NCBI GenBank assembly: GCA_964522165.1
Contig: CAZFVV010000005.1
Coordinates: forward strand, 1,684-65,683
Reading direction: 5' to 3'
From: an uncultured Calditrichaceae bacterium
GTDB lineage: Bacteria; Calditrichota; Calditrichia; RBG-13-44-9; J075
Length of the DNA stretch: 64,000 nt
In this document: positions 1,954 to 20,046 of the stretch, piece by piece
Position numbering within the stretch: the stretch's first letter is position 1
Layout of the letters: each line of letters starts with the position of its first letter
Notes under the pieces: generated by a model
The model's database searches: none
Told to the model about the DNA's origin: nothing
Seen by the model: the letters and a program-made list of their open reading frames with translations, nothing else
Made by a program: the position numbers and the translations under genes

Positions 1954-2158
1954 AAATCCTCCCGGTTAAGGCCTGAAAAAAGCCACTTCTTTTTACGCTT
2001 CAAACCAAAGAAGTATCTATCTGATCTCAATTGATGAACGATCCATTACCGCTTCCGCCGCCGCTTTTTCCCGCAAGGCTCCGAAAAATTACCGAATCAT
2101 TTTACCGAGTGGTAGGAAGTTACAAAAGCCGGGAGGAGATTTCAATAACCCGTTGGGG

Positions 2159-4126
2159 TCAAATCCGCACCGCGCCCCGGAGCATCACCGCGGGATAATT
2201 CTGCGGGTCGCTCAAGATGCCGTCCAACAAAACCCGCATGGTATAATAAGGCTGCATGTCAATTTCTTCCCCCTCCGCCAATTCAACGAAGTTAATCCCG
2301 GTGATCAGGCGATGATCGGCGCTGAGCAGGAATTCCACCGCGCCGTTTTTCCACAGGTAAACTTTGTTACCGGGGTTGAAGGCTAACAGGTATTCTTTGC
2401 CGGCGATGCGCCCCTTCAGGCTGTAGGGATCGGGAAAATAGAATCCGTCGCAGGTTTTGAATCGTTGGTAGCTTGCTTCGGAGAAGAAGAAGCGCGGTTT
2501 CTCGATGAAGGGGCCGCCGTGTTCCGGGCAGTAAGTGTCGCAGTCACCGCACTCGTTGCAGAAATCCGCTAAGTTGGCGATCTGGAATTTCTGCTTCAGC
2601 GTGAATTCCCCGCTCTCCACCGGCGCGAAATCTCCCTCGCCGGAATATTGGAAATTGGTTTTTGGGATTTGCATTTCCCCGGCGGGAATGGAAAAATTCG
2701 CCCCGTTGGGACACACCGGCAAACATTTGTTGCAGGTGATACAGTCGAACAGGGTGAGGCGGCTGTCGATTTTTTTGGGCGGTTTGCTGTTTTGCGAGTC
2801 GTGGTAGCGGGGATTCCCGCGGAGTTGGGGAACGATTCTCCGGGCGTTGGCGGCCCCGGCGGCGGAAATATCCTGCCGGAACCCTTCTTCCGCGTTTTGG
2901 AGGATGAATTCTGCGATGGTATGGGAACCGCTCCCTTCCATAGCGTTTTTCAGGTTTTCTAAGTAGTCGAACAGGCGGGTGTAACCGCCGGTTTTCAGCA
3001 GATCGGTGCAGGTGGTGACCGGTTTCATGTTGCAAAGCACCGCCTCGGCGAAGTTGTGCTTGCTGATGCCCGCGGAGAAGGAGACCGGGAAATCCTCGCC
3101 CATGGCGCTGCGAAAACGGTGCATGGCGTTCATGGAAATCACGTGCAGGGGCGCGCCGGAGAGGTACATCACCTCGTCTTTGAAAATGTTCTGGTTATTT
3201 TTGACTACCAGGGTATTTGTAAACTTAGCGCCTACGTTTTTGCCGCGCGCCCGGGCGAATTCCCGCAAGCGCTGCATCATCGCCGCGGCCTCGTCGAATT
3301 GCAGGTCGTTCTCGAACGCTTTGGGATCGAGTTCGACGTGGGTGTAGCCGAGGTCTTCGTGCAGGGTTTTGCGCACGAAATCGTACCCCGCCAGGGTGGG
3401 ATTCATCTTCACGATCACGTGCAGGCCGTGTTCGCTGATGAGGTGCTGCACGATCGCCTCGATCTCGTCGCGCGGGCAGCCGTGGAAGGTCGAAAGGGTG
3501 GCGGAGTTGGCGACATGGGGGTCGATGGGCAGTTTTTTTAAATGGGCGTATTCCGGCGGAAGGGTATCCAGAATGCTGGCGATGTCCTCCTCCGCGTTCA
3601 TGATCCGGCGCAGCCAGTCGCGCAGCGGCGGAGAAGAAATGCCTTTCAGATCGTAGCCCACGGAAATATCGAAGATCGTGTCATAAAACGGATCGCCCCC
3701 GGGGATGCCCAAAATTTCCATTTCTTCGATGATTTTCAAGAGCACCCAGGCGGTGAGGTATTCCCGCAGGGAATCCTCTAACCGCAGTTCCTGCGACCAC
3801 TCCACGTTGAAACCGATGTTGCGGGCGTCGATGCAGGGGCGAGGAATTTCCAATTGATCGAGTATCTGAACGGTTTTCAACTCCATGATCCGCCCCCCGC
3901 CGAGGAAGGCGAGGATGATGTTCTGCACCATCTGGGTATGGGGGCCGGAGGCCGGTCCCAGGGGGGTGGCGGCGGGCTTGCCGTGAAAATCCACCGAAAA
4001 ATCGTACTCCGGGAAACCGAGGTAGAATTTACGCTGCGGATAGCCGTAGATCGACTGCCGGGATTGGTATTCCGCCAGGATGCTTTGCAGATGTACGCCG
4101 AGGGATAAACCGATCAGTTCTGCCAT
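2159..4126 (-). CDS. ygfK: Putative selenate-reductase-like FeS subunit of the YgfK family (selenium-dependent molybdenum hydroxylase system). It has two 4Fe-4S ferredoxin motifs near the C-terminus.
   Basis: Motifs GPASGPHTQMVQNI and GGGRIMELKTVQ resemble the YgfK N-terminus. CxxCxxCxxxCP appears twice (CITCNKCLPVCP, CNECGDCDTYCP). The gene is a neighbour of ssnA and xdh genes. The start is placed at the second Met because AGGGAG lies 6 nt upstream. Confidence 0.7.
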   Translation of the reverse strand: MAELIGLSLGVHLQSILAEYQSRQSIYGYPQRKFYLGFPEYDFSVDFHGKPAATPLGPASGPHTQMVQNIILAFLGGGRIMELKTVQILDQLEIPRPCIDARNIGFNVEWSQELRLEDSLREYLTAWVLLKIIEEMEILGIPGGDPFYDTIFDISVGYDLKGISSPPLRDWLRRIMNAEEDIASILDTLPPEYAHLKKLPIDPHVANSATLSTFHGCPRDEIEAIVQHLISEHGLHVIVKMNPTLAGYDFVRKTLHEDLGYTHVELDPKAFENDLQFDEAAAMMQRLREFARARGKNVGAKFTNTLVVKNNQNIFKDEVMYLSGAPLHVISMNAMHRFRSAMGEDFPVSFSAGISKHNFAEAVLCNMKPVTTCTDLLKTGGYTRLFDYLENLKNAMEGSGSHTIAEFILQNAEEGFRQDISAAGAANARRIVPQLRGNPRYHDSQNSKPPKKIDSRLTLFDCITCNKCLPVCPNGANFSIPAGEMQIPKTNFQYSGEGDFAPVESGEFTLKQKFQIANLADFCNECGDCDTYCPEHGGPFIEKPRFFFSEASYQRFKTCDGFYFPDPYSLKGRIAGKEYLLAFNPGNKVYLWKNGAVEFLLSADHRLITGINFVELAEGEEIDMQPYYTMRVLLDGILSDPQNYPAVMLRGAVRI

Positions 4127-4210
4127 GGTAATCTCCCTAAAGAATGGGAACGTGGATGACACGGATACGGCGGATTCTCGCTGATTTTGAAAAAATTATC
4201 CGCATAAATC

Positions 4211-4226
4211 TGCAGAATCCGTGCCA
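4211..4226 (-). promoter_or_regulatory. Candidate sigma54 (-24/-12) promoter upstream of ygfK.
   Basis: The minus strand reads TGGCACggattcTGCA, which matches TGGCAC-N5-TTGC at the GG and GC positions. It sits about 85 nt upstream of the ygfK ATG. Confidence 0.25.
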
Positions 4227-4241
4227 TCCGCGTTCCTATTT

Positions 4242-5588
4242 CTAACTCTGAAACCGCTTCCACACCCGTTCCGCCGCCTTGCGCGATTCCGCGGCAATCT
4301 CTGTCTCGTCGATGCCGGGCAATTCCCCGTTTTGCATCACGATTCTGCCGTTGATCATGGTCATAACCACCGCGGCGTCGGCGACGCCGAAGAGAAAGTG
4401 CCCCCAGAAATTTTCCGCGGTCATGGGCGTGGGCGGGTAATAATCAATCAAAACCAGGTCGGCCAAGTAGCCCGGGGCAATTTTTCCGACCGGCTGGCCG
4501 CTGATGCGGCGATACATCTCCGGGTTGTTTTTGAGCGTCATCTGCTGAATTTCCTGCCAGCCGATGGTGGAATTTTTTAGATCGTGTTTATGGAGCAGGT
4601 GGGCAGTGCGAACATCCGGGCGCAGGTCTGCGCTCATCCCGTCGCTGCCGATGCCCGCCAGCACGCCGCGCTGCAGCAATCCGAAAATATCCGTGCGCCC
4701 GACCGCGTTGTTCATGTTGGATTGGGGATTGTGCGCGACCATCGCGCCGGTTTGGGCGAGAATATCTTTCCCGCTCTCGCTGAGGTGAATTCCGTGCGCG
4801 GCGATGCTTTGCGGCCCCCAAATCCCGTATTCGCATAAGCGATCCATGAGGCCGGCGTGATACTTTTGCCGGGTTAGCTGCGCATCCACCGCATCTTCTA
4901 ACAGGTGGATGTGGCAGCCGCGCTGAAGCGAACGGCTGATTTCCCCGGCCTGCTGTAAACTATCATCGTCAAGCGTAAAGGAGGCGTGCAATCCCACCAT
5001 CGCATCAAACAGGTGGTCGGGATTCTTCTGCTTTTCGGATTGGCATTTTCGGATGTAGCGCTCATTCTCCTGTAATCCCTTGCGGGAAATTTCTTTGCCG
5101 TCGCGGTCGGAGACCTCATAGCAGAGAATTCCCCGCAGACCCACCAGCCCCAGGGCATCTTCGATGCGGTCGAGGCTGCCCTCCACCGCGTTGGGACTGG
5201 CGTGGTGGTCGATCACCGCGGTAACGCCCCTCTTGAGCGCGGTAATCGCCGGTGCCAGGGCGCTGTAATAAACCGCTTCCGCATCCAGCGCGGAATCCAA
5301 CTTCCACCAGAGCACTTGCAGGATTTCATGGAAATTTTTCGGCGTTCCTTTCAGCGCCAGGCCGCGCGCGTAGGTTCCGTAGAAGTGCATGTGCGCGTTG
5401 ATGAGGCCGGGCATCAGCAGCCGCCCGCGACCGTCGAGGACTTCGGCTTCGGGATATTTTTTTCGCATTGCGGATGCATCGCCGATCTCGATGATGCGGG
5501 AACCTTCGATCACCGCCGCCTGGCCGGTCAGGAGGGTATTTTTTTCATCGTTGGTGAAAATCTCGGCGTTATGGATCAGGAGATTCAT
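4242..5588 (-). CDS. ssnA: Amidohydrolase / chlorohydrolase, SsnA family (selenium-dependent Mo hydroxylase system).
   Basis: Metal-dependent hydrolase motifs are present (GLINAHMHFYGT, HASF, DAVDAQ). It lies between ygfK and the XdhC-like gene. Confidence 0.75.
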   Translation of the reverse strand: MNLLIHNAEIFTNDEKNTLLTGQAAVIEGSRIIEIGDASAMRKKYPEAEVLDGRGRLLMPGLINAHMHFYGTYARGLALKGTPKNFHEILQVLWWKLDSALDAEAVYYSALAPAITALKRGVTAVIDHHASPNAVEGSLDRIEDALGLVGLRGILCYEVSDRDGKEISRKGLQENERYIRKCQSEKQKNPDHLFDAMVGLHASFTLDDDSLQQAGEISRSLQRGCHIHLLEDAVDAQLTRQKYHAGLMDRLCEYGIWGPQSIAAHGIHLSESGKDILAQTGAMVAHNPQSNMNNAVGRTDIFGLLQRGVLAGIGSDGMSADLRPDVRTAHLLHKHDLKNSTIGWQEIQQMTLKNNPEMYRRISGQPVGKIAPGYLADLVLIDYYPPTPMTAENFWGHFLFGVADAAVVMTMINGRIVMQNGELPGIDETEIAAESRKAAERVWKRFQS

Positions 5589-5627
5589 GGCAACCTTCGT
5601 TCGATAAACTCACTATTTCAAGTTGTT

Positions 5628-6731
5628 TTAGGAGACCAGGTTTTGAAAGGCATTTAAATCCAGCTTCATAAACCCGCCTTCCCCTCCCCTGCGCACGGCG
5701 ATGATCTCGCCCATGATGCTCACCGCAATCTCTTCCGGGGTTAGCGCCCCGATGTTCAGGCCCACCGGCGCGTGAATTTCCCGGATTCGATGCAGGGGAA
5801 TTCCCTTTTCATACAGATTTTTATAAATCAGCAGGCTTTTTCGCTTGCTGCCCAGCAGGCCGATGTAGCGCGCCGGGGTGCGCAGGGCCGCTTGCAGGGT
5901 AACGTCATCGTGGCGGTGCCCCCGGGTGGCGATCACGATAAAGGTGTTGAGTTTTACGGTTGCTTGCCCCAATCCCTCCTCGTAATCCGCTGCGATGGTT
6001 TGGAAGGCTTCCGGGAAACGTTCCGGGTTGGCAAAATCTTCCCGGTCGTCGATAATGATAATCCGATACCCCAGGGTTGCCGCCAGCGAGGAAACCGCCT
6101 TGCCCACGTGCCCCCCGCCCATGATGATCAGGGTGGGCGGGGTGGTAAAACCTTCCACAAAAATTTCTGCGCCGGCGATTTGCAAATACTCATTCTCTCC
6201 CAACGATGCCAGCCGCCGCCCGGTTTTGAGCACTTCCGCCTTGATTTCCCCCTTTCCCGGGGAACCAAAGATTTCTCCGTCTTCATACACTAACAATTTG
6301 CTGCCTGCTGGCGGTTTACCATCCGAACCGGCTTTGACCACGGTTGCCAGCGCGAGCGGCTTCCCGCCTGCGAGGGCTTCATGAATGGGGGTAATGAAAG
6401 GAAGAACCGCATCGCCGGAATACACCGGCTCGATCCAGAAATACATGGTGCCGCCGCATACCAGCCCGTCTTCCGCGGCCAGTTCCTCGTTCAGAGTGTA
6501 ACTACGAAATTGGGGCGGTTCTTTCTTGCGCAGCATCTCCATGGCGATGGACCAGATATCCCCTTCCACGCAGCCGCCGCCCAGGGTGCCGATGGCGCTG
6601 CCGTCGGCGCGAATGAGCATTTTAGCGCCCGGCTTTTGGGGGGTGGAGCCTTGGCAGCGCACCACTGTGGCGAGCACGAAGGGGTGGTTGTGTACGACTA
6701 AGTTTATAGATTCTTGAAAAATTTCTTGCAT
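5628..6731 (-). CDS. XdhC/CoxI-family molybdenum-cofactor insertion/maturation protein (YqeB-like).
   Basis: An XdhC_CoxI N-terminal region (LATVVRCQGSTPQKPGAKM) and a Rossmann-like XdhC C-terminal region (IIMGGGHVGKA) are present. It sits inside the xdh cluster. Confidence 0.75.
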   Translation of the reverse strand: MQEIFQESINLVVHNHPFVLATVVRCQGSTPQKPGAKMLIRADGSAIGTLGGGCVEGDIWSIAMEMLRKKEPPQFRSYTLNEELAAEDGLVCGGTMYFWIEPVYSGDAVLPFITPIHEALAGGKPLALATVVKAGSDGKPPAGSKLLVYEDGEIFGSPGKGEIKAEVLKTGRRLASLGENEYLQIAGAEIFVEGFTTPPTLIIMGGGHVGKAVSSLAATLGYRIIIIDDREDFANPERFPEAFQTIAADYEEGLGQATVKLNTFIVIATRGHRHDDVTLQAALRTPARYIGLLGSKRKSLLIYKNLYEKGIPLHRIREIHAPVGLNIGALTPEEIAVSIMGEIIAVRRGGEGGFMKLDLNAFQNLVS

Positions 6732-6743
6732 GGGTCGAAGGGG

Positions 6744-8630
6744 TTAGAAAAGTTCCAATTGAAGCTCGCTTTTTGCGGCAGTAGCCAGCGAAAGCAGAAA
6801 AGCATTCCATTTTTCTTCATCAATTTTATCGATCAAATGATCGGAAAGCGCCCTTACTCCATTGGCGATTTCCTCAAAACTTAAATCGTTCGCCAGGCGA
6901 TGCAACGCTAAGCGCATCAAAATATCTTTGGTAAAGGGGCGTTTCGAGTCTAAAAAAGTAATTGAAGAAAGTAATTCACGGGTATGGCAGTGGTTTAGCA
7001 GCGCCCAGACAAAAACCGCCTCGGAAAGTTCTTCAAAGCTCAGCAAATAGCAGGTATCATCAACCATGACCGGCTTTTTATCTTCGGGAAGAAGTAACGC
7101 AAACCTCGGTTCTTTATATAAACCGGATACGGCAATCTTATAAGGTTTGAAGGAATAATCCCCAATCCCGAAAATTGAAAACGGGGGCGCATTTTTATAG
7201 ATCGAGGATTTTCTGCGCTGCAGCAGGTGTTGATACCTTGTCAAATACGCGTATAACTTTGGATATTTTATCCTGATATAAGAAGTATTTTCGCCAATTC
7301 TGGTCTGGGGGATGATGACCGATTTAGTGGGTCTGGAAATCACCCATTTTTTAATATCCGAGCTTTTTACCAGGCCATATACCAGCTCTTCTTCAATGTC
7401 TAACTCTTCGCTAAACCCGTTTATCAGTTTCCCTGTTTCCCGTTTGAGTTCAAATACTTTAGCGCAATCGTGTTTTACCCCCTGGCGCCACTCATAAGGC
7501 GAAAGCCCGTCATAGCGGTAATTTTCTTCATAATCGCGAATGTGGGAAATGAATTTATCGGCAACCCAGCCGAAGTCTTTTTCAATGGCGTCGGGATTCT
7601 GGAAATTGGATGCCCGGCAATGAAATCGAGATTCCCTTTCATTTAATTTGCAAGTAAATAAGGAGGCTTCTACGGCGGCATTGAAGTGTTTTTTGGCATC
7701 AATTTGCAGCGCTCGCAAGCCGGAAATTCGGTATTTCTTTTTGGGAAGCTCATAAACGATGTTTTTGATTACCGAATTTTTTGCCAGCATTGCCAGCCAG
7801 CCATCACAATTTGAAAACTCCTCTAACATCATTAAAATGATATATTCGCAAATATCGAAATTGCCTTTGCCGGTAATGGCGTCTAATCCTTTATGGTTTT
7901 TGAAATTTGATTTATCCGGCAGATTATTGGAATCTAAGGCGCTTAGTTCCGAATTCGTTACCCAGGGCGGATTGCCCAGGATCAATAAATTTTTATCTTT
8001 TATGAACGGCGCTATGGTTCGGAAATCGAATTTAAAAATATCCGCCTGGTAGAGAAGGACGGAAGGCTTATTTGCTGATGGATAATCCAGAAAAAATTCC
8101 AGGATTTTAAATTTTGTCTCCCAGTAGTATGGGGGATAAATCTCGATACCCATGATCAATTCGCACTGGGGAAAAGATTTCAGAGAAGAAATCAAGAAAG
8201 AGCCTTTACCAAAAGTGGGCTCGAGTATAACCGCCGGTTGGATATTCCGGGTTTTTAGCCAATAACAAATCAGATCCGTAAGCTCATTGGGGGTTTGGAA
8301 ATCGCCATACTCTCTCCTGCTGATGGCTTCCTGAATCGAATACACCGGTTTCATACATTCCTTAAAATCAGAAAATTCCTCCGGGGTTCTGAAAAAATCA
8401 TTTATCCCGGATAATTCCAATAAAATTTGATTCGCTTTTACCCAGTTATCAACGGGAATCATTCTATCTTTCAGGAATTCTAAGTCCTTCGGTTTTAATT
8501 TTTCGGTATAGGTTCCCACCGCCTTGCCATCGATGATCCCATATAAATCCGGGTTATCATAATTGGATTCCTGAATACAGAAATTTTCCGCTTCGCTAAT
8601 CAGCAAATCAATCGTAAGTCTTGCTTTCAT
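6744..8630 (-). CDS. N6-adenine DNA methyltransferase (gamma-class, Eco57I/TaqI-like) with a large C-terminal target-recognition region.
   Basis: Motif I is ILEPTFGKGSFL and motif IV is NPPW. The gene is AT-rich relative to its surroundings. It is the last gene of a vapB-vapC-NTase-MTase operon. Confidence 0.8.
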   Translation of the reverse strand: MKARLTIDLLISEAENFCIQESNYDNPDLYGIIDGKAVGTYTEKLKPKDLEFLKDRMIPVDNWVKANQILLELSGINDFFRTPEEFSDFKECMKPVYSIQEAISRREYGDFQTPNELTDLICYWLKTRNIQPAVILEPTFGKGSFLISSLKSFPQCELIMGIEIYPPYYWETKFKILEFFLDYPSANKPSVLLYQADIFKFDFRTIAPFIKDKNLLILGNPPWVTNSELSALDSNNLPDKSNFKNHKGLDAITGKGNFDICEYIILMMLEEFSNCDGWLAMLAKNSVIKNIVYELPKKKYRISGLRALQIDAKKHFNAAVEASLFTCKLNERESRFHCRASNFQNPDAIEKDFGWVADKFISHIRDYEENYRYDGLSPYEWRQGVKHDCAKVFELKRETGKLINGFSEELDIEEELVYGLVKSSDIKKWVISRPTKSVIIPQTRIGENTSYIRIKYPKLYAYLTRYQHLLQRRKSSIYKNAPPFSIFGIGDYSFKPYKIAVSGLYKEPRFALLLPEDKKPVMVDDTCYLLSFEELSEAVFVWALLNHCHTRELLSSITFLDSKRPFTKDILMRLALHRLANDLSFEEIANGVRALSDHLIDKIDEEKWNAFLLSLATAAKSELQLELF

Positions 8631-8651
8631 CTCTTTGTTTTGCTCACCTTC

Positions 8652-9170
8652 TTACAACTGTTCTTTGATCTCTTCCGGTAAGAGCGTTTCCAGGTGCGGA
8701 TAGGCTTCTACCAGGCGAAATATATCCGCCAAATCTTTCTGGCGCTTGCTTTTGCGCCGCTGGGAGTCCAGGTAGGCCCAGATTTTGCCCTGTAAAACAT
8801 CTTCCAACGCGGCAACCCTCATCTCATAGCCAATAATTTCTTTATTCACCGCCCGGCCGATAAAAGCTTGATACCGCGCATCGGTTTGGAGTTGAATCCG
8901 CAGGCTGGATTGGGAATGGGTCAAATTCAGGCTGTGGGAAAACTCCTTGACGGTGAATATTTTTGCCGCGGCTTTCTTTAGCTTTGCCAGCGAATCCGCC
9001 GCAACAATCAAGTCCAGGTCTAAACTGACCACCGGTTCGACGTAGGCATTTACCGCTAATCCACCAACAACGCAATAAGAAATTCCCATTTCATGCAGCA
9101 GATTCAGAAACTGCTGCACAACATCGGTTTGCCCATTGGCCAGGCGGTTTAAAAATTGTTTGGGGGTCAT
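8652..9170 (-). CDS. Minimal nucleotidyltransferase (pol-beta fold) family protein.
   Basis: VVGGLAVNAY...DLDLIV resembles the GS...DxD NTase signature. It is AT-rich and sits between vapC and the methyltransferase. Confidence 0.5.
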   Translation of the reverse strand: MTPKQFLNRLANGQTDVVQQFLNLLHEMGISYCVVGGLAVNAYVEPVVSLDLDLIVAADSLAKLKKAAAKIFTVKEFSHSLNLTHSQSSLRIQLQTDARYQAFIGRAVNKEIIGYEMRVAALEDVLQGKIWAYLDSQRRKSKRQKDLADIFRLVEAYPHLETLLPEEIKEQL

Positions 9171-9185
9171 GATATATTTTTTTGA

Positions 9186-9587
9186 TTACAGAAAAGGATC
9201 AATAATGGTCAATGAGTTCTCAATCAACTGGTTATGCTGCAAATCTTCACTGTAGATTTTGACACAGTTGCTTTCCAATGCAGAAGCCAGTATAAGGCTG
9301 TCAAAATACGAATAACTGTATTTCCGGGCAAGATTAAGAGCTGATGCAACCATAGAGATATTGACGATTTTGATTTCACACGTTTGCTTCAAAAGATTGA
9401 ATAAACCATCAATGTCATCATACGATAGTCCAAGCTTGCGAAGGCAAACATTAATAACCTCATTAATTACCTGGGTGGAAATGATGGGGTGTATTCTCAA
9501 CAGTGACTTTGCTATATCTTTTTTGCGTTTGTCATTTCCAAACGCATAAATAAGAATGTTTGAATCTAAAAATGTTTTATCGCTCAT
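9186..9587 (-). CDS. vapC: PIN-domain toxin, VapC family.
   Basis: An N-terminal FLDSNILIY acidic motif and a C-terminal DSLILASAL region are present. It overlaps the upstream small antitoxin ORF. Confidence 0.75.
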   Translation of the reverse strand: MSDKTFLDSNILIYAFGNDKRKKDIAKSLLRIHPIISTQVINEVINVCLRKLGLSYDDIDGLFNLLKQTCEIKIVNISMVASALNLARKYSYSYFDSLILASALESNCVKIYSEDLQHNQLIENSLTIIDPFL

Positions 9588-9777
9588 TAGCCTCCTCTCT
9601 GTCGAATTTGAGTTGGCTTAAGTTAAAATTAAAACGAGCAAAAAATTGATCGATCTCGTCAATAATTTGATCAATTATCTCAATCTCTAAAATAATTTTC
9701 TCTTCCTCTATATTTTTAAGTTTCCCTACCCTGGGAATTAAAAATCCATCTTTAACTTTTGTTGCTTCTATCTTCAT
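9577..9777 (-). CDS. vapB: Putative VapB-type antitoxin (small DNA-binding protein).
   Basis: A 66-aa ORF (MKIEATKVKDGFLIPR...) overlaps the vapC start by 11 nt. The internal Met is chosen as the start because the longer track ORF would overlap the xdh Mo-subunit gene. Confidence 0.45.
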   Translation of the reverse strand: MKIEATKVKDGFLIPRVGKLKNIEEEKIILEIEIIDQIIDEIDQFFARFNFNLSQLKFDREEANER

Positions 9778-9799
9778 GGTTGGCTCCGTAATTTGGCTA

Positions 9800-12130
9800 T
9801 TACTCGATTGAAACACTCTCTTGTTCTTTAATTTTTTCTTTTTCATATTTTCTATCTCCTAAAATAGCCAGTTCTTCCCCGGAATACAACTTCATCAACA
9901 CCCGCTCCGGGGTCATGGGGGCGTGAAAACCGAATTCCTTCTGGGGGCGGAATGCTTTCATGGCCTCCCGGATGGCGAAGAAGACCCCGATGCCGTACAT
10001 CAACGGCGGCTCGCCCACCGCTTTGGAGCCGTAAGGCCCCCAGGGATTTTCCGCGTCTTCCAACAGCGTTACTTGCAAATCGTCGGGCATGAAATAGACT
10101 TCCGGCGTTTTGTAGCTGGCCAGGGCGTTGGAGAGCAGCCGGCCTTTTTCATCGAACTGTAAATCTTCCATGGTCATCCAGCCCAGCCCCTGCGCCAGCC
10201 CGCCTTCGATCTGCCCCAAATCCACTAAGCGGTTGACCGGGCGGCAGAGATCATGTACCAGTTTCACCGCGTCGATCTCGTAAGCGCCGCGCAGGCAATC
10301 CACCGTGACTTCGATAATCGCCGCGCCGTACACGTGATAGGCGAAGGGATGTCCCTTCTCTTTGGTTTTGTCGAAACTGATTTTGGGCGTGGCGTAAAAG
10401 GCGTGGGCGGAAAGAGCGGTGCGGGAAAAGTATGCCGCTTGCACCAGGCGGTTCCAGTCCCAGCCGGTTTCCTTTCCATTATATAATATCTTTTCGCCTA
10501 CCATGGCGATCTGGCCGGTATCTTCCAGTTTCAGTTCCCGGGCTGCCACCTCTTTCAAACGCTCTAAAATTTGAGTGACCGCGCTCATGGTCGCCTTGCC
10601 GTACAAATCGGTAGAGGCGCTGGCGGCGGTAGGGGACATATTGGCGATCCGGGTGGTATTGGTGCTCTCGATCTTGATGCGCTCTTCCCCGATGCCGAAG
10701 CTTCGCGCCGCAATATTGGCAATCTTGGTATTGATCCCCTGGCCCATCTCCACCCCGCCGGTGGTGACGCTCACGCTGCCGTCGGTGTACACGTGCACTA
10801 ATGCGCTGCCCTGGTTCATGAACGTGGCGGTAAAGGAGATGCCGAAACAGATCGGCATGACCGCGAACCCTTTTTTGATCTCGAAATGCTCGCGGTTGAA
10901 CTGCTCGATCCGGCTGCGGATTTCCGGAAGGCGGTATTTCCCTTGCGCGGTCTGCCAGGTGATTTGCGCCCGGGCCTGTTCGGCAATTTGCCCGTAGGGA
11001 AACATATCGCCGTCTTTCAACAAATTTTTCTGCTGAATTTCCTCCCGCGGCATTCCTGACGCTTCCGCCGCTTTGGCGATGGCGCTTTCGATAACGAACA
11101 TCGCCTGCGGGCCGCCGAATCCCCGGAAGGCGGTGAAAGGGGGCAGGTTGGTGCGGCAGGAGGCGGCAAAGATGCGCACGTTGGGAATGAAATAAGCGTT
11201 GGCGCTGTGGAAAAGAGTGCGTTCTAAAATCGCGGGAGACAAATCCGCGGTCGCCCCGGCGTTTTGATAGTGCTTCGCCTCGTAGGCCAGGATTTGGCCC
11301 TCCCTGCTCAGCCCGATCTTGAAATCCGAAGAATAGGGGTGGCGCTTGCCGGTCATTTTCAGGTCTTCGTGGCGGGAGAGCAGCAGCTCCGCCGGCTTTT
11401 GGGTATGCCAGGCGGCCAGCGCGGCCAGGCAGGCCCAGGCGGTGGCCTGGTCTTCTTTTCCGCCGAATCCCCCGCCTAACCGCTTCACTTCCACTTCGAT
11501 TTTATGGTTTGCTACCCCTAACACCTTGGCAGCGTGTTTCTGCACCGCGTAAGGGCTTTGGGTGGAAGAATAAATTTTGAGGATGCCGCCCTCCTGCGGC
11601 AGCGCCCGCGCCGCCTGGGTTTCCAGGTAGAGGTGTTCCTGCCCGCCGACGTCGCAGCGGCCTTCCACTACCAGGTCGCATTTCTCCCAGGCCGCGTCGA
11701 TGTCGCCGAGGGAAAAGGTGCGGGCAGCGCCGATGATTTCCCCGCGCGCGAACGCTTCCCGGGGATCGGTGATGGGCGGGAGTTCCTCTATTTCTAAGGA
11801 GATTCCCTCCAGCGCCTTGCGCACGATGGCCGGGTCTTTCCCCACCACCAGCGCCACCGGCTGGCCGATGTAGCTTACCTTCCCCGCCGCTAACAGCGGC
11901 TCGTCCTGGATCAGGGGGCCGATCTGGTTTTCCCCGGGAATATCCACCGCGCTCAGCACCGCGACAACTCCTTCCATTGCCAGCGCGTTGGCGGGATCAA
12001 TGCGGAGTATCTTTCCGTGCGCCACCGGGGAGGAAAACACCGCGGCGTGCAGCATGTCCGCCGGCTGGGGCAAATCGCCCAGGTATTGGGATTCGCCCCG
12101 GGTGTGCAGGGCAGCGTCGATGTGTTTCAT
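9800..12130 (-). CDS. xdhB: Xanthine dehydrogenase / aldehyde oxidase family molybdopterin-binding subunit.
   Basis: Mo-cofactor-binding motifs are present (GGGFGGK, FRGFGGPQ). It is 776 aa. Confidence 0.85.
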   Translation of the reverse strand: MKHIDAALHTRGESQYLGDLPQPADMLHAAVFSSPVAHGKILRIDPANALAMEGVVAVLSAVDIPGENQIGPLIQDEPLLAAGKVSYIGQPVALVVGKDPAIVRKALEGISLEIEELPPITDPREAFARGEIIGAARTFSLGDIDAAWEKCDLVVEGRCDVGGQEHLYLETQAARALPQEGGILKIYSSTQSPYAVQKHAAKVLGVANHKIEVEVKRLGGGFGGKEDQATAWACLAALAAWHTQKPAELLLSRHEDLKMTGKRHPYSSDFKIGLSREGQILAYEAKHYQNAGATADLSPAILERTLFHSANAYFIPNVRIFAASCRTNLPPFTAFRGFGGPQAMFVIESAIAKAAEASGMPREEIQQKNLLKDGDMFPYGQIAEQARAQITWQTAQGKYRLPEIRSRIEQFNREHFEIKKGFAVMPICFGISFTATFMNQGSALVHVYTDGSVSVTTGGVEMGQGINTKIANIAARSFGIGEERIKIESTNTTRIANMSPTAASASTDLYGKATMSAVTQILERLKEVAARELKLEDTGQIAMVGEKILYNGKETGWDWNRLVQAAYFSRTALSAHAFYATPKISFDKTKEKGHPFAYHVYGAAIIEVTVDCLRGAYEIDAVKLVHDLCRPVNRLVDLGQIEGGLAQGLGWMTMEDLQFDEKGRLLSNALASYKTPEVYFMPDDLQVTLLEDAENPWGPYGSKAVGEPPLMYGIGVFFAIREAMKAFRPQKEFGFHAPMTPERVLMKLYSGEELAILGDRKYEKEKIKEQESVSIE

Positions 12131-12169
12131 GGCCGGGTTCCTTAACTTAGAATTTCAACTTAAGCCCTA

Positions 12170-12390
12170 ATGTTACGCAAGTTCATTACGCAGGGATAAA
12201 TCCCTACAAAATTAGGGCAGGATTGATATCTCCAATAAATCCCCGATCTAAAGATCGGGGCTATTAAAGCCTTGCATAAACATTGAATAGCCCTGCGATT
12301 CATCGCGGGGAGGGCTGTGAATGCTCCTCAAAATTGTGAGGGGATTTATCCCCGAGCCATGACCAGTGCGTAACATCAGTTAAGTCTTTA
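12170..12390. repeat. MITE-like / structured intergenic element with TGTTACGCA ... TGCGTAACATCAG termini and internal inverted repeats.
   Basis: Termini are inverted complements of each other. The same terminal 13-mer, GCGTAACATCAGT, occurs at 16203. Internal palindromes include CCCCGATCTAAAGATCGGGG and GGGATAAATCCC...GGGATTTATCCC. Confidence 0.4.
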
Positions 12391-12631
12391 TTTCAAGGGG
12401 GCTATCTGACCCAAAGGTTGATAATTTCTGGCTTTTTCCCATAAATCATTCAATTCATCCTGATGCAAAGAAGCCTATTCCATAACCATTCCAAATGCCC
12501 CTGGCGGCAATTTCCCGGAAATAATTGCCAGGTTTATTAATGCTTCAGCATCTCCATACTCAGCATGGAAATGAGGCGGAGGATGATCTTTAAAATACAT
12601 TCTGATCACAATCCCGTGAAATCGGCTGATC

Positions 12632-12916
12632 TCAGGCATTAGCTGTCTCAATTTTCAGATTTCCAAAAACTTCTTCAGGCGTCTTCCCGGTTATTTCCAT
12701 ATAAACTGCATCAGGGCATATCTCGATCTCTTCACTCCAGGCGATCTGCCCGCTACTGCCGATATACACCATTTGAAAGTTCTTATAATCATTCCACAAA
12801 GAGAAAACTCCCTTTCCTGCCAGGGCAGAAAGATCGACTTCTCCTTCCACTCCGTCGGAGTATTTCACCCATAGTTTATAGTTTTCTAAGGGTTTCACTT
12901 GAATTGGTTTAAACAT
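12632..12916 (-). CDS. DUF2442 domain protein.
   Basis: It is a small AT-rich ORF (MFKPIQVKPLENYKLWVKYSDGVEGEVDLS...) inserted between the two xdh subunit genes. Confidence 0.55.
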   Translation of the reverse strand: MFKPIQVKPLENYKLWVKYSDGVEGEVDLSALAGKGVFSLWNDYKNFQMVYIGSSGQIAWSEEIEICPDAVYMEITGKTPEEVFGNLKIETANA

Positions 12917-12944
12917 TAGATTTACTCCTCTCAGGTTACTTTTC

Positions 12945-14393
12945 TCAAGTAATGAAGCCACTTTCCAGTAACTCCCTTACTGTTACGTACCCCGGAAACA
13001 ACTTCACAAAATGCGCGAAGAGCAACTGCCGGGCGAGCAGGCGCTTGTATTCCGCGGAGCCGCGAACGTCGCTGATGGGGGAAATCTCCTGTTGGGCAAT
13101 CACTGCCGCCTGTGCGACAGTTTCCGGAGTGATTTCTTTTTCAGCTAAGAATTCGCAAGTGCAGCGCATAAACAAGGGAATGGGCGCCACCCCACCCACG
13201 CTCAAATTCACTTTTTGAATGACCCGGTCCCGGGTGGTAATCTTGATGGCGCTGTTCACGCTGGCAATGTCGAGGCACTTGCGTTTGGAGACTTTCTCGA
13301 AGTTGATCCGCGCTGCGGGAGAAGGTTTCGGGAAAACGATTTCGCTGACCATTTCCGCAGGCTTCTTGGCGAGCTGTTTGTATCCTTTGTAGAATTCCGT
13401 AAGGGGAAGCTTGCGCGATTTTTGCCCGTTTTGCAGTATCAACGTAGTATCCAGCGCCAGCAGCAAAATGGTCATATCCCCGATGGGCGAGGCGTTGACG
13501 ATATTGCCCCCTAAGGTGGCGCGGTTGCGGATTTGCCAGGAAGCGTTCCGGTGCATGTAGGATTGGATGCCCGGTATCGCCTGTCGGACCAGCGGATGGG
13601 CGGCAAATTCTTCAAAAGTGGTCAACGCGCCCAGCCGGATTTCGCCATCCTTTGCGGAAATTCCCTTCATTTCCGGGTGCAGGTTCAGTACCGCTACCCG
13701 CATATCCGGCAGCGCCTCGCCGCGCTGCACGTACAGATCCGTTCCCCCGGCGATGAAGACTTCCGGCTTCTGCCGGCCGTTTGCAGAGGGAGGGGATTGG
13801 ATTGCCCGCAATCTCTCCGCAATCTCCCGAAAATATTCCGGCAGCATCCCCTTCGCAATCATCTGTGCGATGTTTTCCGATTTGCTGCCGCTGCTCCCCA
13901 GTTTTGCAGCATCCTTGATGATCAATTCCCCGGCGCGTTTCAGCGAGGCATACCCGGTGCAGCGGCAGAGGTGGCCGCTGAGCGCGTATTTAACATCTTC
14001 AGCGCTGAGCGAGGCGCCCTTTTCCATCAGTCGGGCGGTAAGGGAGACCACGATGCCCGGGGTGCAGAATCCGCACTGGGTGGCGCCTTCGGCGACAATC
14101 GCATCCTGCACCGGGGAGAGGTGTTGCATGTTCAATCCCTCCACGGTTACCAAATGCTTGCCGGCCAACTCGCCCAGGGGCACTAAGCAGGAAGTTACCG
14201 GGGTATAGCTAACCCCGTTGCCGCGCAATTCCCCGATCAGCGCCGCGCAGGCCCCGCAATCGCCTTCTTTGCAGCCTTCCTTGGTTCCCATGAGCATGGC
14301 CCGGCGGCGCAGGAAATCCAGAACCAACATGCCCGGCGGCTCCGCGGCCGCTATTTCCTGCCGGTTCAACACAAAACGGATGGGAGAAAACAT
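12945..14393 (-). CDS. xdhA: Xanthine dehydrogenase family small subunit with 2Fe-2S and FAD-binding domains.
   Basis: 2Fe-2S motifs are CKEGDCGACA, CGFCTPG and CRCTGY. An FAD-binding CO-dehydrogenase-flavoprotein-like region (FIAGGTDLYV) follows. The start is trimmed to MFSPIRF, which has an AGGAAG-like RBS. Confidence 0.85.
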   Translation of the reverse strand: MFSPIRFVLNRQEIAAAEPPGMLVLDFLRRRAMLMGTKEGCKEGDCGACAALIGELRGNGVSYTPVTSCLVPLGELAGKHLVTVEGLNMQHLSPVQDAIVAEGATQCGFCTPGIVVSLTARLMEKGASLSAEDVKYALSGHLCRCTGYASLKRAGELIIKDAAKLGSSGSKSENIAQMIAKGMLPEYFREIAERLRAIQSPPSANGRQKPEVFIAGGTDLYVQRGEALPDMRVAVLNLHPEMKGISAKDGEIRLGALTTFEEFAAHPLVRQAIPGIQSYMHRNASWQIRNRATLGGNIVNASPIGDMTILLLALDTTLILQNGQKSRKLPLTEFYKGYKQLAKKPAEMVSEIVFPKPSPAARINFEKVSKRKCLDIASVNSAIKITTRDRVIQKVNLSVGGVAPIPLFMRCTCEFLAEKEITPETVAQAAVIAQQEISPISDVRGSAEYKRLLARQLLFAHFVKLFPGYVTVRELLESGFIT

Positions 14394-14648
14394 ATCTGCT
14401 TCCTTTCCGGTTCTAAGCTTAAGCAGAGTATAAATGAGCAGGCCCCTAAATGCAATAGAAAAGTAGGGGCGCAAGGGGCGTTCAGGGGCAGGGGAGCCAA
14501 CACCTCCCAGCCATTGATCCCGCGGGCGCATCACAAAAAATAGAGGTATGGCCAGCTTTTAAATTTTTTATCCAGAAAAAAGTTAACTTTGCATTGCAAA
14601 GTATTTTCTGATAGCATAAATTGTTCCCCCATTCATAAGGAGATGTAC

Positions 14649-15308
14649 ATGATTGCCAATCACGTCCACCATGCGCTGGCCCAGGTTCGGGAGTTGCAGC
14701 AGAAGATTTTGGAAAACCAACGTTTCAAAGGCTACTCCGGAAGGGCGCGGGCGATATGCGGTTGCGTCGCGCTTCTGGCCGCTTTCATTATGAACTCTTC
14801 GTTTTTTCCCCAGAATCCCCGCTCCCACGTGCTGGGATGGGGCGTGGTGGCGTTGTTCGGAATCCTGCTGAATTTCGGCGCCTTGATCCACTGGTTCTTG
14901 TTCGATCCCCAGGTGAAGCGGAATATTCGCAAGCTAAAACCCACCCTGGATGCCTTGCCGGCCATCCTGGTGGGAGCGGTGATGACCGTTACCATGCTGC
15001 ACAGCGGCCTCCCCCAATACCTCTTCGGCATCTGGATGAGCCTGTTCGGGCTGGCCAACCTTGCCTCCCGCCACGTACTGCCGAAAAGAATCTGGATGGT
15101 CGGCGCTTACTACATTGTGTGCGGCTCCATTTTCCTCTTATTTCCCAGCGTCTCATTCCCTAATCCCTGGCCGATTGGCATCGTCTTTTTCGTGGGGGAA
15201 TGGGCGGGAGGAATTATCCTCCATTTCGACGACCTCCAGAATCTTTCCGCCAGTGATATTTTAACCATTTTCAACGCGAAGGAGAATAAGCATGTCCAGC
15301 ATATATGA
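14649..15308 (+). CDS. Hypothetical integral membrane protein (4-5 TM helices).
   Basis: Hydrophobic segments are present. AAGGAG lies 7 nt before the chosen ATG. Its end overlaps the downstream wHTH regulator gene. Confidence 0.5.
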   Translation: MIANHVHHALAQVRELQQKILENQRFKGYSGRARAICGCVALLAAFIMNSSFFPQNPRSHVLGWGVVALFGILLNFGALIHWFLFDPQVKRNIRKLKPTLDALPAILVGAVMTVTMLHSGLPQYLFGIWMSLFGLANLASRHVLPKRIWMVGAYYIVCGSIFLLFPSVSFPNPWPIGIVFFVGEWAGGIILHFDDLQNLSASDILTIFNAKENKHVQHI

Positions 15309-15675
15309 TAATCCCTACACCGCGCTGAAGACGATCTTCCACGAACCCAACCGCCTGGCGATCATGTCCGCGTTATGCAGCTCCGCCGATGGGCTGGCGT
15401 TCAAGGAGTTGAAAGAATCCTGCGAGCTTACCGACGGCAACCTGAGCCGCCACCTGAAAGCCTTAGAAGAAGCGCAGGTGATCTTGATCGAGAAGAAATT
15501 TATCGGCGCCAAGCCCCGCACCACGGTGGTATTGACCGATATAGGGAGGGAAAGTTTTGTCGATTATCTGAAGGCCCTGGAAGAGGTGCTGAAAAAGGCC
15601 GCCGAGGCCGTGGCCGCCGGCGCCGAGGAAGGAATTTCCCTGCCCCTGGCCTGGATCAAACCGGCAAACGCCTGA
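15292..15675 (+). CDS. Winged-helix transcriptional regulator (ArsR/MarR-like).
   Basis: The HTH region ELTDGNLSRHLKALEEAQVI is present. The gene overlaps the end of the membrane-protein gene. Confidence 0.55.
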   Translation: MSSIYDNPYTALKTIFHEPNRLAIMSALCSSADGLAFKELKESCELTDGNLSRHLKALEEAQVILIEKKFIGAKPRTTVVLTDIGRESFVDYLKALEEVLKKAAEAVAAGAEEGISLPLAWIKPANA

Positions 15676-16045
15676 AATGCACCGGGGCCGATTTTGAAAA
15701 CACAACCGCAGCGTTTTGGGGTAAATATCCCCGGGGGAAATTTAGTATTTCCTGATGGCGGATATTTTTTTAGATTTGGCGCTTTGTAATACAAAGCTCT
15801 TTGTTTTTTAAATATATTTTTGGGCAAAGAGTACCCCTGATCAAGATGGAATACAGATTGATGTGCGATTTTTAGCCGCTTTTAGCAGTCAAAAAACGGT
15901 TTTGGGGAAACGCGGGGGAACGGCGGCGCAGAGTTGCCGAGAAAATGGCAAAAAAGATTTTCTCGATAATGTGAGCCTGACAATCAAATCGCTTGAGGAG
16001 CGCATTTAATTGTTTCGCTCTATGAGCGTAATTTCAAATATCATT

Positions 16046-16216
16046 AAGCGGTGTTACGCACTTGTTACTTGTTCCCACGCTCTGCGGGGGAACATTACGC
16101 TTAACACTCTGTGTCCTGGTTTGAGGCAGTGTCACTATTCGACGCTGAGCATCGAAAAGCGGCGTTTACCCCGACCCGTCGGGGTGAACGAGGTGTAAAT
16201 GCGTAACATCAGTCAC
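16046..16216. repeat. Second MITE-like element sharing the TGTTACGCA / TGCGTAACATCAG termini.
   Basis: It shares its terminal motifs with the element at 12170-12390. An internal palindrome CCCCGACCCGTCGGGG is present. Confidence 0.35.
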
Positions 16217-16322
16217 TAAGTGTAACCTAATGCTGTATGGATAGAAAATCAAAGGCGTCCGCCTGGCAGGGGAGCGCTCAATATAATTCGGAATTTACCA
16301 ACGTTTAACGCAGAGGTTCGGC

Positions 16323-17117
16323 ATGATAGGTATGATGAAAAAGCCTTCTTCCAGGCTGGATGAATTGCAGAGACTACTGGATCGGGGACATGAACTGCCG
16401 CAACACGTGGCGATCATTATGGACGGAAACGGAAGATGGGCAAAACGCCGCGCCCTGCCCCGCGCCGCCGGCCATCGGGAAGGGGTCAAATCGGTGCGCA
16501 GCGTGGTAGAAGCGGCCGGGGAACTGGGAATCGAATTTTTGACCCTTTATACGTTTTCAAAAGAAAACTGGCAGCGCCCCATGGATGAGGTTTCGCTGCT
16601 GATGAAGCTGTTAGTGACCTCGCTCAAAAGTGAAATCGACGAGCTTGCGGCAAGAAACGTTCATTTGAACGTGCTGGGAGACCTTGACGATTTGCCGCGC
16701 TTTGCCCGCGCCGAGCTGATAGAGGCGATGGAGCGCACCCAACACAACACCGGCCTGAAGCTGAACCTGGCCTTGAGTTATGGGGGACGCGCGGAAATTG
16801 TTGCATCGGTGAAGGATATTGCCCGCCGGGTGCGCGATGGGGAATTGTACCTGGAAGATATCGACGAATACACCATCGGCGACAGCCTCTATACCCGCAA
16901 TATGCCCGACCCGGATTTACTCATCCGCACCAGCGGGGAGCAACGTATCAGTAATTTCCTGCTCTGGCAGGTCGCTTATGCGGAGATCTATCTCACCCGC
17001 ACCTTGTGGCCGGATTTTCGCAAAACAGAGTTTTATGAAGCATTGATCAATTACCTGCGCCGGGAACGGCGTTTCGGAATGGTCAGCGAACAACTTCAGA
17101 AAAAGGCGGTTTCCTGA
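16323..17117 (+). CDS. uppS: Isoprenyl transferase (undecaprenyl diphosphate synthase).
   Basis: The HVAIIMDGNGRWA motif is diagnostic of the family. Confidence 0.9.
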   Translation: MIGMMKKPSSRLDELQRLLDRGHELPQHVAIIMDGNGRWAKRRALPRAAGHREGVKSVRSVVEAAGELGIEFLTLYTFSKENWQRPMDEVSLLMKLLVTSLKSEIDELAARNVHLNVLGDLDDLPRFARAELIEAMERTQHNTGLKLNLALSYGGRAEIVASVKDIARRVRDGELYLEDIDEYTIGDSLYTRNMPDPDLLIRTSGEQRISNFLLWQVAYAEIYLTRTLWPDFRKTEFYEALINYLRRERRFGMVSEQLQKKAVS

Positions 17118-17132
17118 TTCCAATAAACTTTA

Positions 17133-18407
17133 ATGGCTAAAAACGATTACCGGGATACGCTCGACTACCTTTTCAGCCTGCAACGGGTGGGCATCAAGCT
17201 CGGCCTGGACAACATCCGCGCCCTGCTGGCCGCCGTGGGCGAACCCCAGACCCGCTGGCCGGCCATCCATATTGCCGGAACCAACGGAAAAGGGTCCAGC
17301 GCGGCCATGTTAGAATCTATTCTTCTGAGCGCCGGTTATACAGTCGGCCTTTACACCTCTCCGCATTTGATCGATTTCAGCGAAAGAATCCGCGTCAACC
17401 GCCAGACCATCTCCACCGACGTGGTGGTGAAATTTACCCGGAGACTGCGCCCACTCATCGATAAAATTGAGCCTTCTTTTTTTGAAGTAACCACCGCCCT
17501 GGCGTTCTGGCATTTTGCGCAGCACCCGGTGGAAGTGGCGGTGGTGGAAACCGGCATGGGCGGGCGGCTGGATTCCACCAATGTGCTGGCGCCCCTGGTT
17601 TCGCTGATCACCCCGGTCGATTACGACCATCAACAATACCTGGGAGATACCTTGAAGGAGATTGCCGCGGAGAAAGGGGGAATCATTAAAACCGGGGTTC
17701 CCTGCCTGACCAACAACCGCCATCCCGAGGTGCTGGCGGTGCTGGCGGAGATGTGCCGGAGCAGGAACGCGCCGTTCGGCAATGTTTTCGAGCAGGGTTC
17801 CTGGGAAATTCTGCACGCCGATTTGCTGGGCACCCGCTTCAATTTGGCCCTGGGCGGGCGCAACTGGCAAAACCTGGCCCTCAACCTGCCGGGAGATTAT
17901 CAAATGGAAAACGTTCTGTTGGTAATGGCAGCGCTGGAACCGCTAAAAGACTACCTTTCCATTCCCGATCAAGCGGTCGTAACCGGTTTGAATTCGGTTC
18001 TCTGGAAAGGGCGGTTGCATCTTGTTTCCACTGCCCCGCAGGTGATGATCGACGTCTCCCATAATCCCGCCGGTTTTGAGCGAACCCTGGGTTTTATCGG
18101 GCAATTTTTTCCCAAAAGCCGCGTCAACGCGATCACTTTTTTACAAGAAGATAAAGATTTTCGGAAAATCGGCGATTTATTAATATCGGGGGTGCAAGAG
18201 ATATTCATCATGGATTTGCCCCTGGGCAAACCGCTGAATCCGCAAATCTACCGGGATTATTTGCGGGAAAAAGGGGGGCAGGTGCGGATTATCGATTCCT
18301 TTGAAACCATGCGCGAAAGGATTTTTCGCTCTCCTTCTCCGGAACCGTTGTGGCTGGTCATCGGTTCCCACTACCTTGCCGGGGAAGCCTACCAAAAGCT
18401 GCTGTGA
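17133..18407 (+). CDS. folC: Folylpolyglutamate synthase / dihydrofolate synthase.
   Basis: A P-loop (GTNGKGS) is present and the length is typical of the Mur ligase family. Confidence 0.85.
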   Translation: MAKNDYRDTLDYLFSLQRVGIKLGLDNIRALLAAVGEPQTRWPAIHIAGTNGKGSSAAMLESILLSAGYTVGLYTSPHLIDFSERIRVNRQTISTDVVVKFTRRLRPLIDKIEPSFFEVTTALAFWHFAQHPVEVAVVETGMGGRLDSTNVLAPLVSLITPVDYDHQQYLGDTLKEIAAEKGGIIKTGVPCLTNNRHPEVLAVLAEMCRSRNAPFGNVFEQGSWEILHADLLGTRFNLALGGRNWQNLALNLPGDYQMENVLLVMAALEPLKDYLSIPDQAVVTGLNSVLWKGRLHLVSTAPQVMIDVSHNPAGFERTLGFIGQFFPKSRVNAITFLQEDKDFRKIGDLLISGVQEIFIMDLPLGKPLNPQIYRDYLREKGGQVRIIDSFETMRERIFRSPSPEPLWLVIGSHYLAGEAYQKLL

Positions 18408-18622
18408 ACCGCTCCCGTGTAATCCACCCCTATGGTTCTGTTCCTGAAACAATTATCTTGATTTTTATAAAAGGGAAATTTATATTTAGCCGCTCACTGT
18501 TAGCTTCAGAGAATTCCCAACCGCCTCTCCTTCCTGATGAACCGCGTGAGGCTTCTCTTGAAAAACAATCATGATACAATGGTCATTAATCTCAAGCCAA
18601 TCTAAAACGGAGTAATTTTGCT

Positions 18623-19873: not shown

Positions 19874-20046
19874 GAAACATCAAGAACCAGGGACCGAGAA
19901 CCAGAAGCCAATTAAGGGGGCCGGCAACCGGCTCCTGAAATCGAGTTCACAAACCCTGGATATTGAAAGTCTGGTTCTTGGTTCTTGCTTTCCGGGAGTT
20001 TTGTTTATATCTTTGCCCGGTTTTTAAGTCTGAAAGGAGTTTTACG

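Follow-up and report, generated by a model that had tools for sequence, protein, structure and literature searches.

A composite AT-rich islet with a fused restriction–modification remnant in a molybdenum hydroxylase operon of an uncultured Calditrichaceae bacterium

An AT-rich islet between xdhB and xdhC

Within a 64,000-nucleotide stretch of contig CAZFVV010000005.1 from an uncultured Calditrichaceae bacterium (the 64-kb window, numbered from its first letter), a 3.1-kb AT-rich islet lies between xdhB and xdhC, two genes of a molybdenum (Mo) hydroxylase operon. It carries four open reading frames (ORFs), all on the minus strand (9577-9846, 9186-9587, 8652-9170 and 6744-8630), for a VapB-like antitoxin, a VapC-type PIN-domain toxin, a minimal nucleotidyltransferase (NTase) and a 628-amino-acid protein in which the stub of a restriction endonuclease (REase) is fused to a DNA methyltransferase (MTase). 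Four co-directional AT-rich genes in this position had been described in an earlier note made from the sequence alone, and both the ORFs and the base composition bear this out: the islet is the lowest-GC 3.1-kb stretch of the window, with a GC content of 40.9% against 55.4% in the rest of the window and a window median of 54.9%. We set its boundaries by comparison with L016, a relative with a near-empty site. blastn aligns the upstream flank (window 12165-9875) with L016 5589-7878 and the downstream flank (window 6731-4214) with L016 8001-10521, and the counterpart of the islet in L016 is a 122-nucleotide (nt) spacer. The islet and its features are as follows.

6732-9874, minus strand: the whole AT-rich islet, between xdhB and xdhC (blastn against L016, and GC content)
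9577-9777, minus strand: vapB-like antitoxin gene, 66 amino acids from ATG 9777 (homologue in L180 with the same overlap)
9186-9587, minus strand: VapC-type PIN-domain toxin, 133 amino acids (Pfam PIN, 54.3 bits, E = 2.6e-14)
8652-9170, minus strand: minimal NTase of the DUF1814/AbiEii superfamily, MenT1-like, 172 amino acids, full length (Pfam AbiEii and fold search)
8503-8630, minus strand: stub of an NspV-family Type II REase, codons 1 to ~43, which gives the fused ORF its start codon (REase models and L004)
8502-8503, minus strand: junction of a 567-nt in-frame deletion (blastn breakpoints against L004)
6744-8502, minus strand: body of a gamma-class N6-adenine DNA MTase, codons 7-591, an orphan (PADLOC MTase_II PDLC03310)

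The vapB and PIN genes overlap by 11 nt, 15 nt separate PIN from the NTase gene and 21 nt the NTase gene from the MTase ORF, and xdhC follows 12 nt further on. We found no convincing minus-strand terminator between the islet genes and no sigma-70-like minus-strand promoter. Since the islet genes run in the direction of xdhB and xdhC with no such terminator in between, read-through transcription is likely, and the islet would probably be co-transcribed with the xdh operon. GC content differs by module (30.8% in vapB, 35.6% in PIN, 48.9% in the NTase gene and 41% in the REase stub and MTase), and these three GC classes suggest three separate origins.

In a PADLOC search, which the earlier note had proposed, the four-gene set is covered by no system model. 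For the MTase ORF the search returned only MTase_II-type and REase-type models, the weakest match being to a generic orphan-MTase model, and for the NTase it returned weak AbiEii matches. Neither PADLOC nor the fold search with the NTase identified signature proteins of bacteriophage exclusion (BREX; PglX, PglZ or BrxC), of the defence island system associated with restriction–modification (DISARM; DrmA, DrmB or DrmC) or of the cyclic-oligonucleotide-based antiphage signalling system (CBASS; a CD-NTase with its effector).

A restriction–modification pair fused by deletion

The 628-amino-acid product had been read as a gamma-class MTase without a recognizable cognate endonuclease. The motifs on which that reading was based, FGKGSF (residues 140-145) and NPPW (residues 220-223), are present and invariant across the MTase family, and residues 105-579 match PADLOC MTase_II model PDLC03310 (E = 7.5e-127), but the ORF is not a simple MTase. 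Its residues 4/5-45 match positions 1-41 of the 209-position REase model NF052465.1 (38 bits against a cut-off of 290), the same segment matches PADLOC REase_II model PDLC03454, and the precomputed Pfam label of the whole protein is PF27258 (NspV). There is thus no functional cognate endonuclease, as had been supposed, but its remnant is recognizable.

The intact form of the pair is found in L004, a Logan contig with ~89% nucleotide identity to the window, which at the same site has xdhB, a 223-amino-acid REase, a 591-amino-acid MTase and xdhC, and carries neither vapBC nor the NTase. The L004 REase is a full-length match to NF052465.1 (339.9 bits against the cut-off of 290), which answers the suggestion that REase homologues be sought beside the MTase in relatives. 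The stub in the window is 87.5% identical in nucleotides to the 5′ end of this gene, and the MTase body is 88% identical in amino acids to the L004 MTase that adjoins it. The blastn breakpoints are sharp: window 8684-8503 corresponds to L004 2422-2602 and window 8502-4214 to L004 3170-7460, leaving L004 2603-3169 (567 nt, or 189 codons, in frame) absent from the window. The deletion took REase codons ~44-223, a 6-nt spacer and MTase codons 1-6, and joined the stub to MTase codon 7, in agreement with the MTase homologues, which are ~590-600 amino acids long and start at window residue ~38. The identical 628-amino-acid protein occurs on several contigs from different sequencing runs. Following the deletion, translation of the MTase would begin at the REase start codon and add a leader of ~43 REase-derived residues. 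A tblastn search with the intact L004 REase found no second NspV-family copy in the window; the earlier note had allowed for a classic Type II MTase whose REase lies elsewhere, and the classic Type II match holds, but the REase was deleted and does not lie elsewhere in the window. For annotation, the ORF should be labelled as a REase-stub::MTase fusion.

The resemblance to NspV-family Type IIP restriction–modification (R-M) systems (NF052465.1, PF27258, with a gamma-class N6-adenine MTase) extends to gene order, since R also precedes M in L006 and in bacteria as remote as Nostoc and Aeromonas, there on plasmids. Given these pairs and the full-length NF052465.1 match, it is implausible that the L004 REase ORF arose by recent insertion into a gene that had been fused from the outset. 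NTase or PIN neighbours of the MTase homologues are absent in L005, in L006 and on the plasmids. Unlike these systems, the islet retains just ~43 REase codons, which run in frame into an MTase without its own start codon, and the MTase clade of the islet is longer, at ~590 amino acids compared with ~470-480 in the plasmid homologues and the PADLOC model. NspV is among the Type II enzymes listed by Orlowski & Bujnicki 2008 (PMC2441816). The cognate site might be TTCGAA, a guess taken solely from the Pfam family name.

Restriction would have been lost with the deletion, and N6-methyladenine modification of the cognate site presumably kept. The MTase probably still methylates, because the fused protein keeps every family-invariant residue in an intact 628-codon frame and because its ratio of non-synonymous to synonymous substitution rates (dN/dS) is 0.14-0.16. 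This value equals that of the housekeeping flanks and demonstrates purifying selection on M, as an average that includes the time before R was lost and is blind to recent relaxation. Between the window and L004, synonymous divergence (dS) is 0.39 in M and 0.36-0.38 in xdhB and xdhC; because the two are about equal, the islet is old and was inherited, and diverged, together with its flanks.

Palindromes are depleted more generally. Many 6-base-pair palindromes are strongly avoided across the whole window, with zero copies of GTATAC and of all four CTAG-containing hexamers, 2 copies of GGGCCC where ~50 are expected, and 4 of CGATCG where ~26 are expected. This avoidance suggests that many R-M systems were encountered in the past.

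A decay series at one chromosomal site

In addition to L004, further alleles and homologues capture the R-M pair and its neighbours in different states (nucleotide identities in parentheses).

L176-178 (~90%): xdhB, vapB and PIN present; only the first 17 codons of the NTase left after a loss of 487 nt; R::M junction shared with the window (GTYIEKLKP); MTase put out of frame by an internal deletion of 476 nt (433-amino-acid ORF)
L175 (~76%): genuine NTase 3′ end; REase independently cut to a 12-codon stub that continues into the ATG of the MTase itself; intact MTase; xdhC
L016, Calditrichaceae MAG_33 (~89%): xdhB-xdhC gap of 68 nt, with a 14-codon REase start (VKPRLTIELLIYEN) in the spacer; NTase-like XdhB tail
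L015 (~89%): an extra DUF4160-DUF2442 pair between MTase and xdhC
L005 (unrelated genome): REase split into two ORFs

Two of these sites might be taken for states that preceded the islet, and both interpretations were rejected. L016 is not a true empty site, given the 14-codon REase start in its 68-nt spacer and the NTase-like tail of its XdhB. Nor does L004 represent an ancestral state into whose xdhB 3′ end vapBC and the NTase were later inserted. The native C terminus of the NTase family reads ..YPHLxxLLPESIK.., and L004 XdhB ends in ..ALLPEEIKEQL*; because ..LLPExIK.. is the native NTase ending, XdhB ends in the scar of a deleted NTase in both L004 and L016, which places the NTase together with R-M at this site ancestrally. 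The REase start directly follows the NTase 3′ end in L175 and in the L004 and L016 scars, none of which preserves what preceded the NTase.

The order of events, with R degraded first and M later, agrees with a published route to orphan MTases, in which R is lost before M and the orphan stands beside a decayed REase (Seshasayee et al. 2012, PMC3424554). The selective reason for this order may be the logic of post-segregational killing. The states of L176 and L016 would be later steps on the same route. The site is therefore a natural illustration of the passage from R-M system to orphan MTase, pseudogene and scar, with every stage present in close relatives at one chromosomal position.

A compact VapBC module

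The PIN toxin–antitoxin pair that the earlier note proposed is supported by the Pfam PIN match (54.3 bits) and by the same pair in L180. A vapB gene is indeed present upstream of PIN, but it encodes 66 rather than 89 amino acids: the 89-amino-acid ORF that begins at 9846 is an over-extension into xdhB, and the true start is ATG 9777. In L180, a 66-amino-acid ORF (58% identity, E = 9e-27) overlaps by 11 nt a PIN gene of 62% identity, so that vapB-PIN is a conserved two-gene VapBC module that recurs there on its own. As in other type II VapBC systems, the toxin has four conserved acidic positions (D8, E43, D96 and E114/D115, invariant in 13 homologues) and is preceded by a small overlapping antitoxin gene, with the pair kept as a unit. 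Unlike them, the antitoxin has no match in Pfam or NCBIfam at E 0.1 or better, including to DNA-binding families (AbrB, ribbon–helix–helix, Phd/YefM or helix–turn–helix). Relative to L176, dN/dS is 0.06 for vapB and 0.11 for PIN, which shows purifying selection on both genes. The module presumably serves as an ordinary addiction or stress module.

A MenT1-like nucleotidyltransferase from a stand-alone family

The 172-amino-acid NTase had been assigned a pol-beta fold, an assignment that both profile and fold searches uphold. Its sole Pfam match is AbiEii (28.2 bits against a cut-off of 22.5), which covers motif IV; NTP_transf_2 and Polbeta give no Pfam match, and the PADLOC AbiEii models also match. 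Plain sequence searches of the MTase and the NTase against the Protein Data Bank (PDB) returned nothing useful, and MenT1 was reached solely through the family profile and the fold search. The AlphaFold2 model of the NTase (mean predicted local distance difference test score of 91.5) has as its best Foldseek match in the PDB the toxin MenT1 (8an4/8an5; E = 8e-8, template modelling (TM) score 0.64-0.67), followed by LnuA, ANT(2'')-Ia and TM1012. The family profile aligns S49-L-D51 of the NTase motif GG..S49-L-D51-L-D53 with T39-R-D41 of MenT1, in which T39 and D41 are catalytic residues (PMC10435456). The counterparts of MenT1 T39, D41, K137 and D152 are invariant in the NTase family, as S49, D51, K129 and D146 or D149.

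The islet NTase thus shares with MenT1 (Rv0078A) and other AbiEii DUF1814 toxins (PMC10435456, PMC7450476) a minimal fold of ~170-190 amino acids, motif IV and the catalytic positions. It differs in having just 18% identity to MenT1 and in the absence of a MenA- or AbiEi-type antitoxin upstream (PADLOC), where the gene is instead the PIN toxin. LnuA and ANT(2'')-Ia, both small-molecule NTases, have structural scores similar to those of MenT1, and the fold therefore does not narrow the substrate. By analogy with MenT1, the enzyme would add nucleotides to tRNA 3′ ends.

The family is very large, with more than 7,600 homologues, nearly all ~172 amino acids long and 60-74% identical across phyla. 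We surveyed homologue loci L007-L014 and L095-L174. At 0 of 80 other metagenomic loci is there a vapB, PIN, MTase or REase homologue nearby; the neighbours at these 80 loci are heterogeneous and mostly housekeeping genes, with upstream gaps of 50-200 nt, and occasional upstream partners encode DUF2283, a NYN protein or another pol-beta NTase. The earlier note had raised a link to HEPN/MNT pairs or to CBASS, including the case of an MNT antitoxin with its HEPN partner encoded elsewhere. We found no MNT match in Pfam or by fold and no HEPN gene beside the NTase, whose neighbours are PIN and the R::M fusion, and the sole CD-NTase-related fold match was Cap10-CdnD at E = 0.08. From the Pfam match, the gene neighbourhoods and the predicted structure, we assign the NTase to the AbiEii/MenT1-like enzymes, as a member of a usually stand-alone family and not an MNT antitoxin. 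Such a large and well-conserved stand-alone family is of wider interest.

Probable origin and erosion of the islet

Taken together, these results make it highly probable that the locus is a horizontally acquired, eroding hotspot islet of three independent modules: VapBC, a MenT1-like NTase and the remnant of an NspV-family Type IIP R-M system. The elements are of known kinds in a composite islet, and change little for the field. The modules occur independently of one another in relatives and homologues, and the enzymatic activities of their products are predicted from sequence.

Several observations weigh against this account or parts of it. The MTase could be crippled by the loss of its first 6 codons and the addition of a 43-residue foreign leader. 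At this site vapBC is present in the window and L176 alleles only, and it may have belonged to the ancestral islet or have arrived later. Function, and not common descent, could explain why the NTase is linked with R-M in at least four alleles. The M region and the flanks give slightly discordant trees, the window being nearest to L176 in M and nearest to L004 and L016 in the flanks, which points to allele exchange by recombination and not to a simple vertical series of deletions. In xdhB and xdhC, L004 and L016 share 97.5% identity, but L004 carries the intact R-M pair, whereas L016 has just scars and an NTase-like tail of different sequence, implying recent allele replacement by recombination at the hotspot. 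Finally, TTCGAA, the NspV site, is depleted, with 11 copies observed where 25-29 are expected (a ratio of 0.37-0.44), yet among 64 palindromes it takes only 19th place in a genome where palindromes are avoided in general. The depletion is therefore not specific, and TTCGAA would be a guess at the recognition site.

The alternative that fares best, although we consider it doubtful, is that the orphan MTase has been domesticated and is selected for a host function (such as epigenetic regulation, or protection when R-M systems of its own type invade again) instead of awaiting decay. A deletion exactly in frame that preserved the start codon, an uninterrupted reading frame with all family-invariant residues, a dN/dS like that of the housekeeping flanks and the recurrence of the identical protein on contigs from different sequencing runs would fit such a role. 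The MTase is nevertheless dispensable in L176, which shares the R deletion and whose MTase is frameshifted by the 476-nt deletion, and the gene is wholly gone in L016; the pairwise dN/dS, which includes the time before R was lost, cannot detect recent relaxation.

The remaining alternatives join the modules into larger units. It is very unlikely that the NTase family, large, well conserved and almost always encoded alone, is an antitoxin-independent tRNA-modifying effector (controlled, for example, by auto-phosphorylation) that became functionally linked to the neighbouring R-M system, as a second layer of defence, in this Calditrichaceae lineage; the coupling is proposed because the linkage of NTase and R-M is traceable in at least four alleles of the lineage.

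We judge it highly unlikely that the NTase is a toxin held in check by VapB or PIN, which would make vapB-PIN-NTase a three-gene toxin–antitoxin unit. The MenT1 toxin fold with its conserved catalytic counterparts (S49, D51, K129 and D146 or D149), the position of the gene 15 nt downstream of PIN without an antitoxin of its own, and a NYN (PIN-like) gene upstream of NTase homologues in L014 and L098 would all fit such a unit. The homologues tell against it, as islet-type vapB or PIN genes are found at none of the 80 loci and the family mostly stands alone among housekeeping genes behind 50-200-nt gaps. So does L176, which lost the NTase and kept vapBC intact and constrained; in L175 and the L004 and L016 scars the NTase 3′ end adjoins the REase start directly, with the upstream context not recoverable.

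That vapB, PIN, NTase and MTase form one co-evolved defence or addiction system of a new type is extremely unlikely: tight co-directional packing with gaps of at most 21 nt, the lack of a PADLOC model for the set and the NTase–R-M linkage in several alleles are outweighed by an MTase that is half of a classic R-M pair, by R-M without vapBC or NTase in L004, by constrained vapBC without NTase or working MTase in L176, by NTase loci without PIN, MTase or REase homologues (0 of 80), by MTase homologues without NTase or PIN neighbours in L005, L006 and the plasmids, and by the three GC classes. The earlier label of an uncharacterized defence or addiction island is fair in its generic sense, but a single new four-gene system is unsupported by a gene set that is conserved neither in L004 and L176 nor at the NTase loci, and in annotation the locus should not pass for a new defence system.

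The xdh flanks and a second hotspot

The earlier description of the surroundings as a Mo-hydroxylase cluster, putatively selenium-dependent, is essentially right. Upstream of the islet lies an XdhB-type Mo (molybdopterin) subunit; downstream are an XdhC-family factor and, beyond it, SsnA, which scores above both NCBIfam cut-offs, and a protein whose match to the 1012-position YgfK model is confined to the N-terminal ~400 positions. Two flanking features bear on the islet boundaries.

9800-9874, minus strand: non-native XdhB C-terminal tail (..EELAILGDRKYEKEKIKEQESVSIE*), encoded by the islet (homology breakpoint and TIGR02965)
5628-6731, minus strand: xdhC-family maturation factor, the downstream flank (Pfam XdhC_CoxI and XdhC_C; 89% identity to L015 and L016)

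Homology of xdhB to L004 and L016 ends at window 9874/9875, and the TIGR02965 match reaches no further than residue 747 of 776. Each relative has its own sequence in the final 20-30 residues of XdhB (window 9800-9874; L004 2375-2454; L016 7879-7932). These residues come from islet DNA or from the 3′ end of a deleted NTase gene, and the enzyme evidently tolerates arbitrary C-terminal tails. Small selfish genes can therefore nest in a metabolic operon and rewrite the 3′ end of a neighbouring gene, here xdhB, without breaking it. By eye, 15 of 19 positions match in a possible 19-nt target duplication at the ends of the cassette, a similarity too weak in purine-rich sequence to interpret.

Other small genes occur in the same operon. 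At the downstream end of the site, L015 684-1241 holds genes for DUF4160 (86 amino acids) and DUF2442 (95 amino acids) proteins between the MTase stop and the xdhC start, a pair that is not in the window. The window has a second AT-rich patch (12166-12961) between xdhA, which encodes the iron–sulfur and flavin adenine dinucleotide (FeS/FAD) subunit, and xdhB. An Rfam scan of window 1-20000, in which a riboswitch was sought in the AT-rich non-coding patch upstream of xdhB, gave no match. The second patch contains one isolated DUF2442 gene (12632-12961, minus strand, GC 0.415) and a non-coding part of ~470 nt, in which a strong terminator-like hairpin lies on the minus strand at 12260-12241. At this junction L176 instead has a 44-amino-acid ORF and an 81-amino-acid MqsA-like ORF, and the xdhA-xdhB junction is thus a second small-gene hotspot of the same operon.

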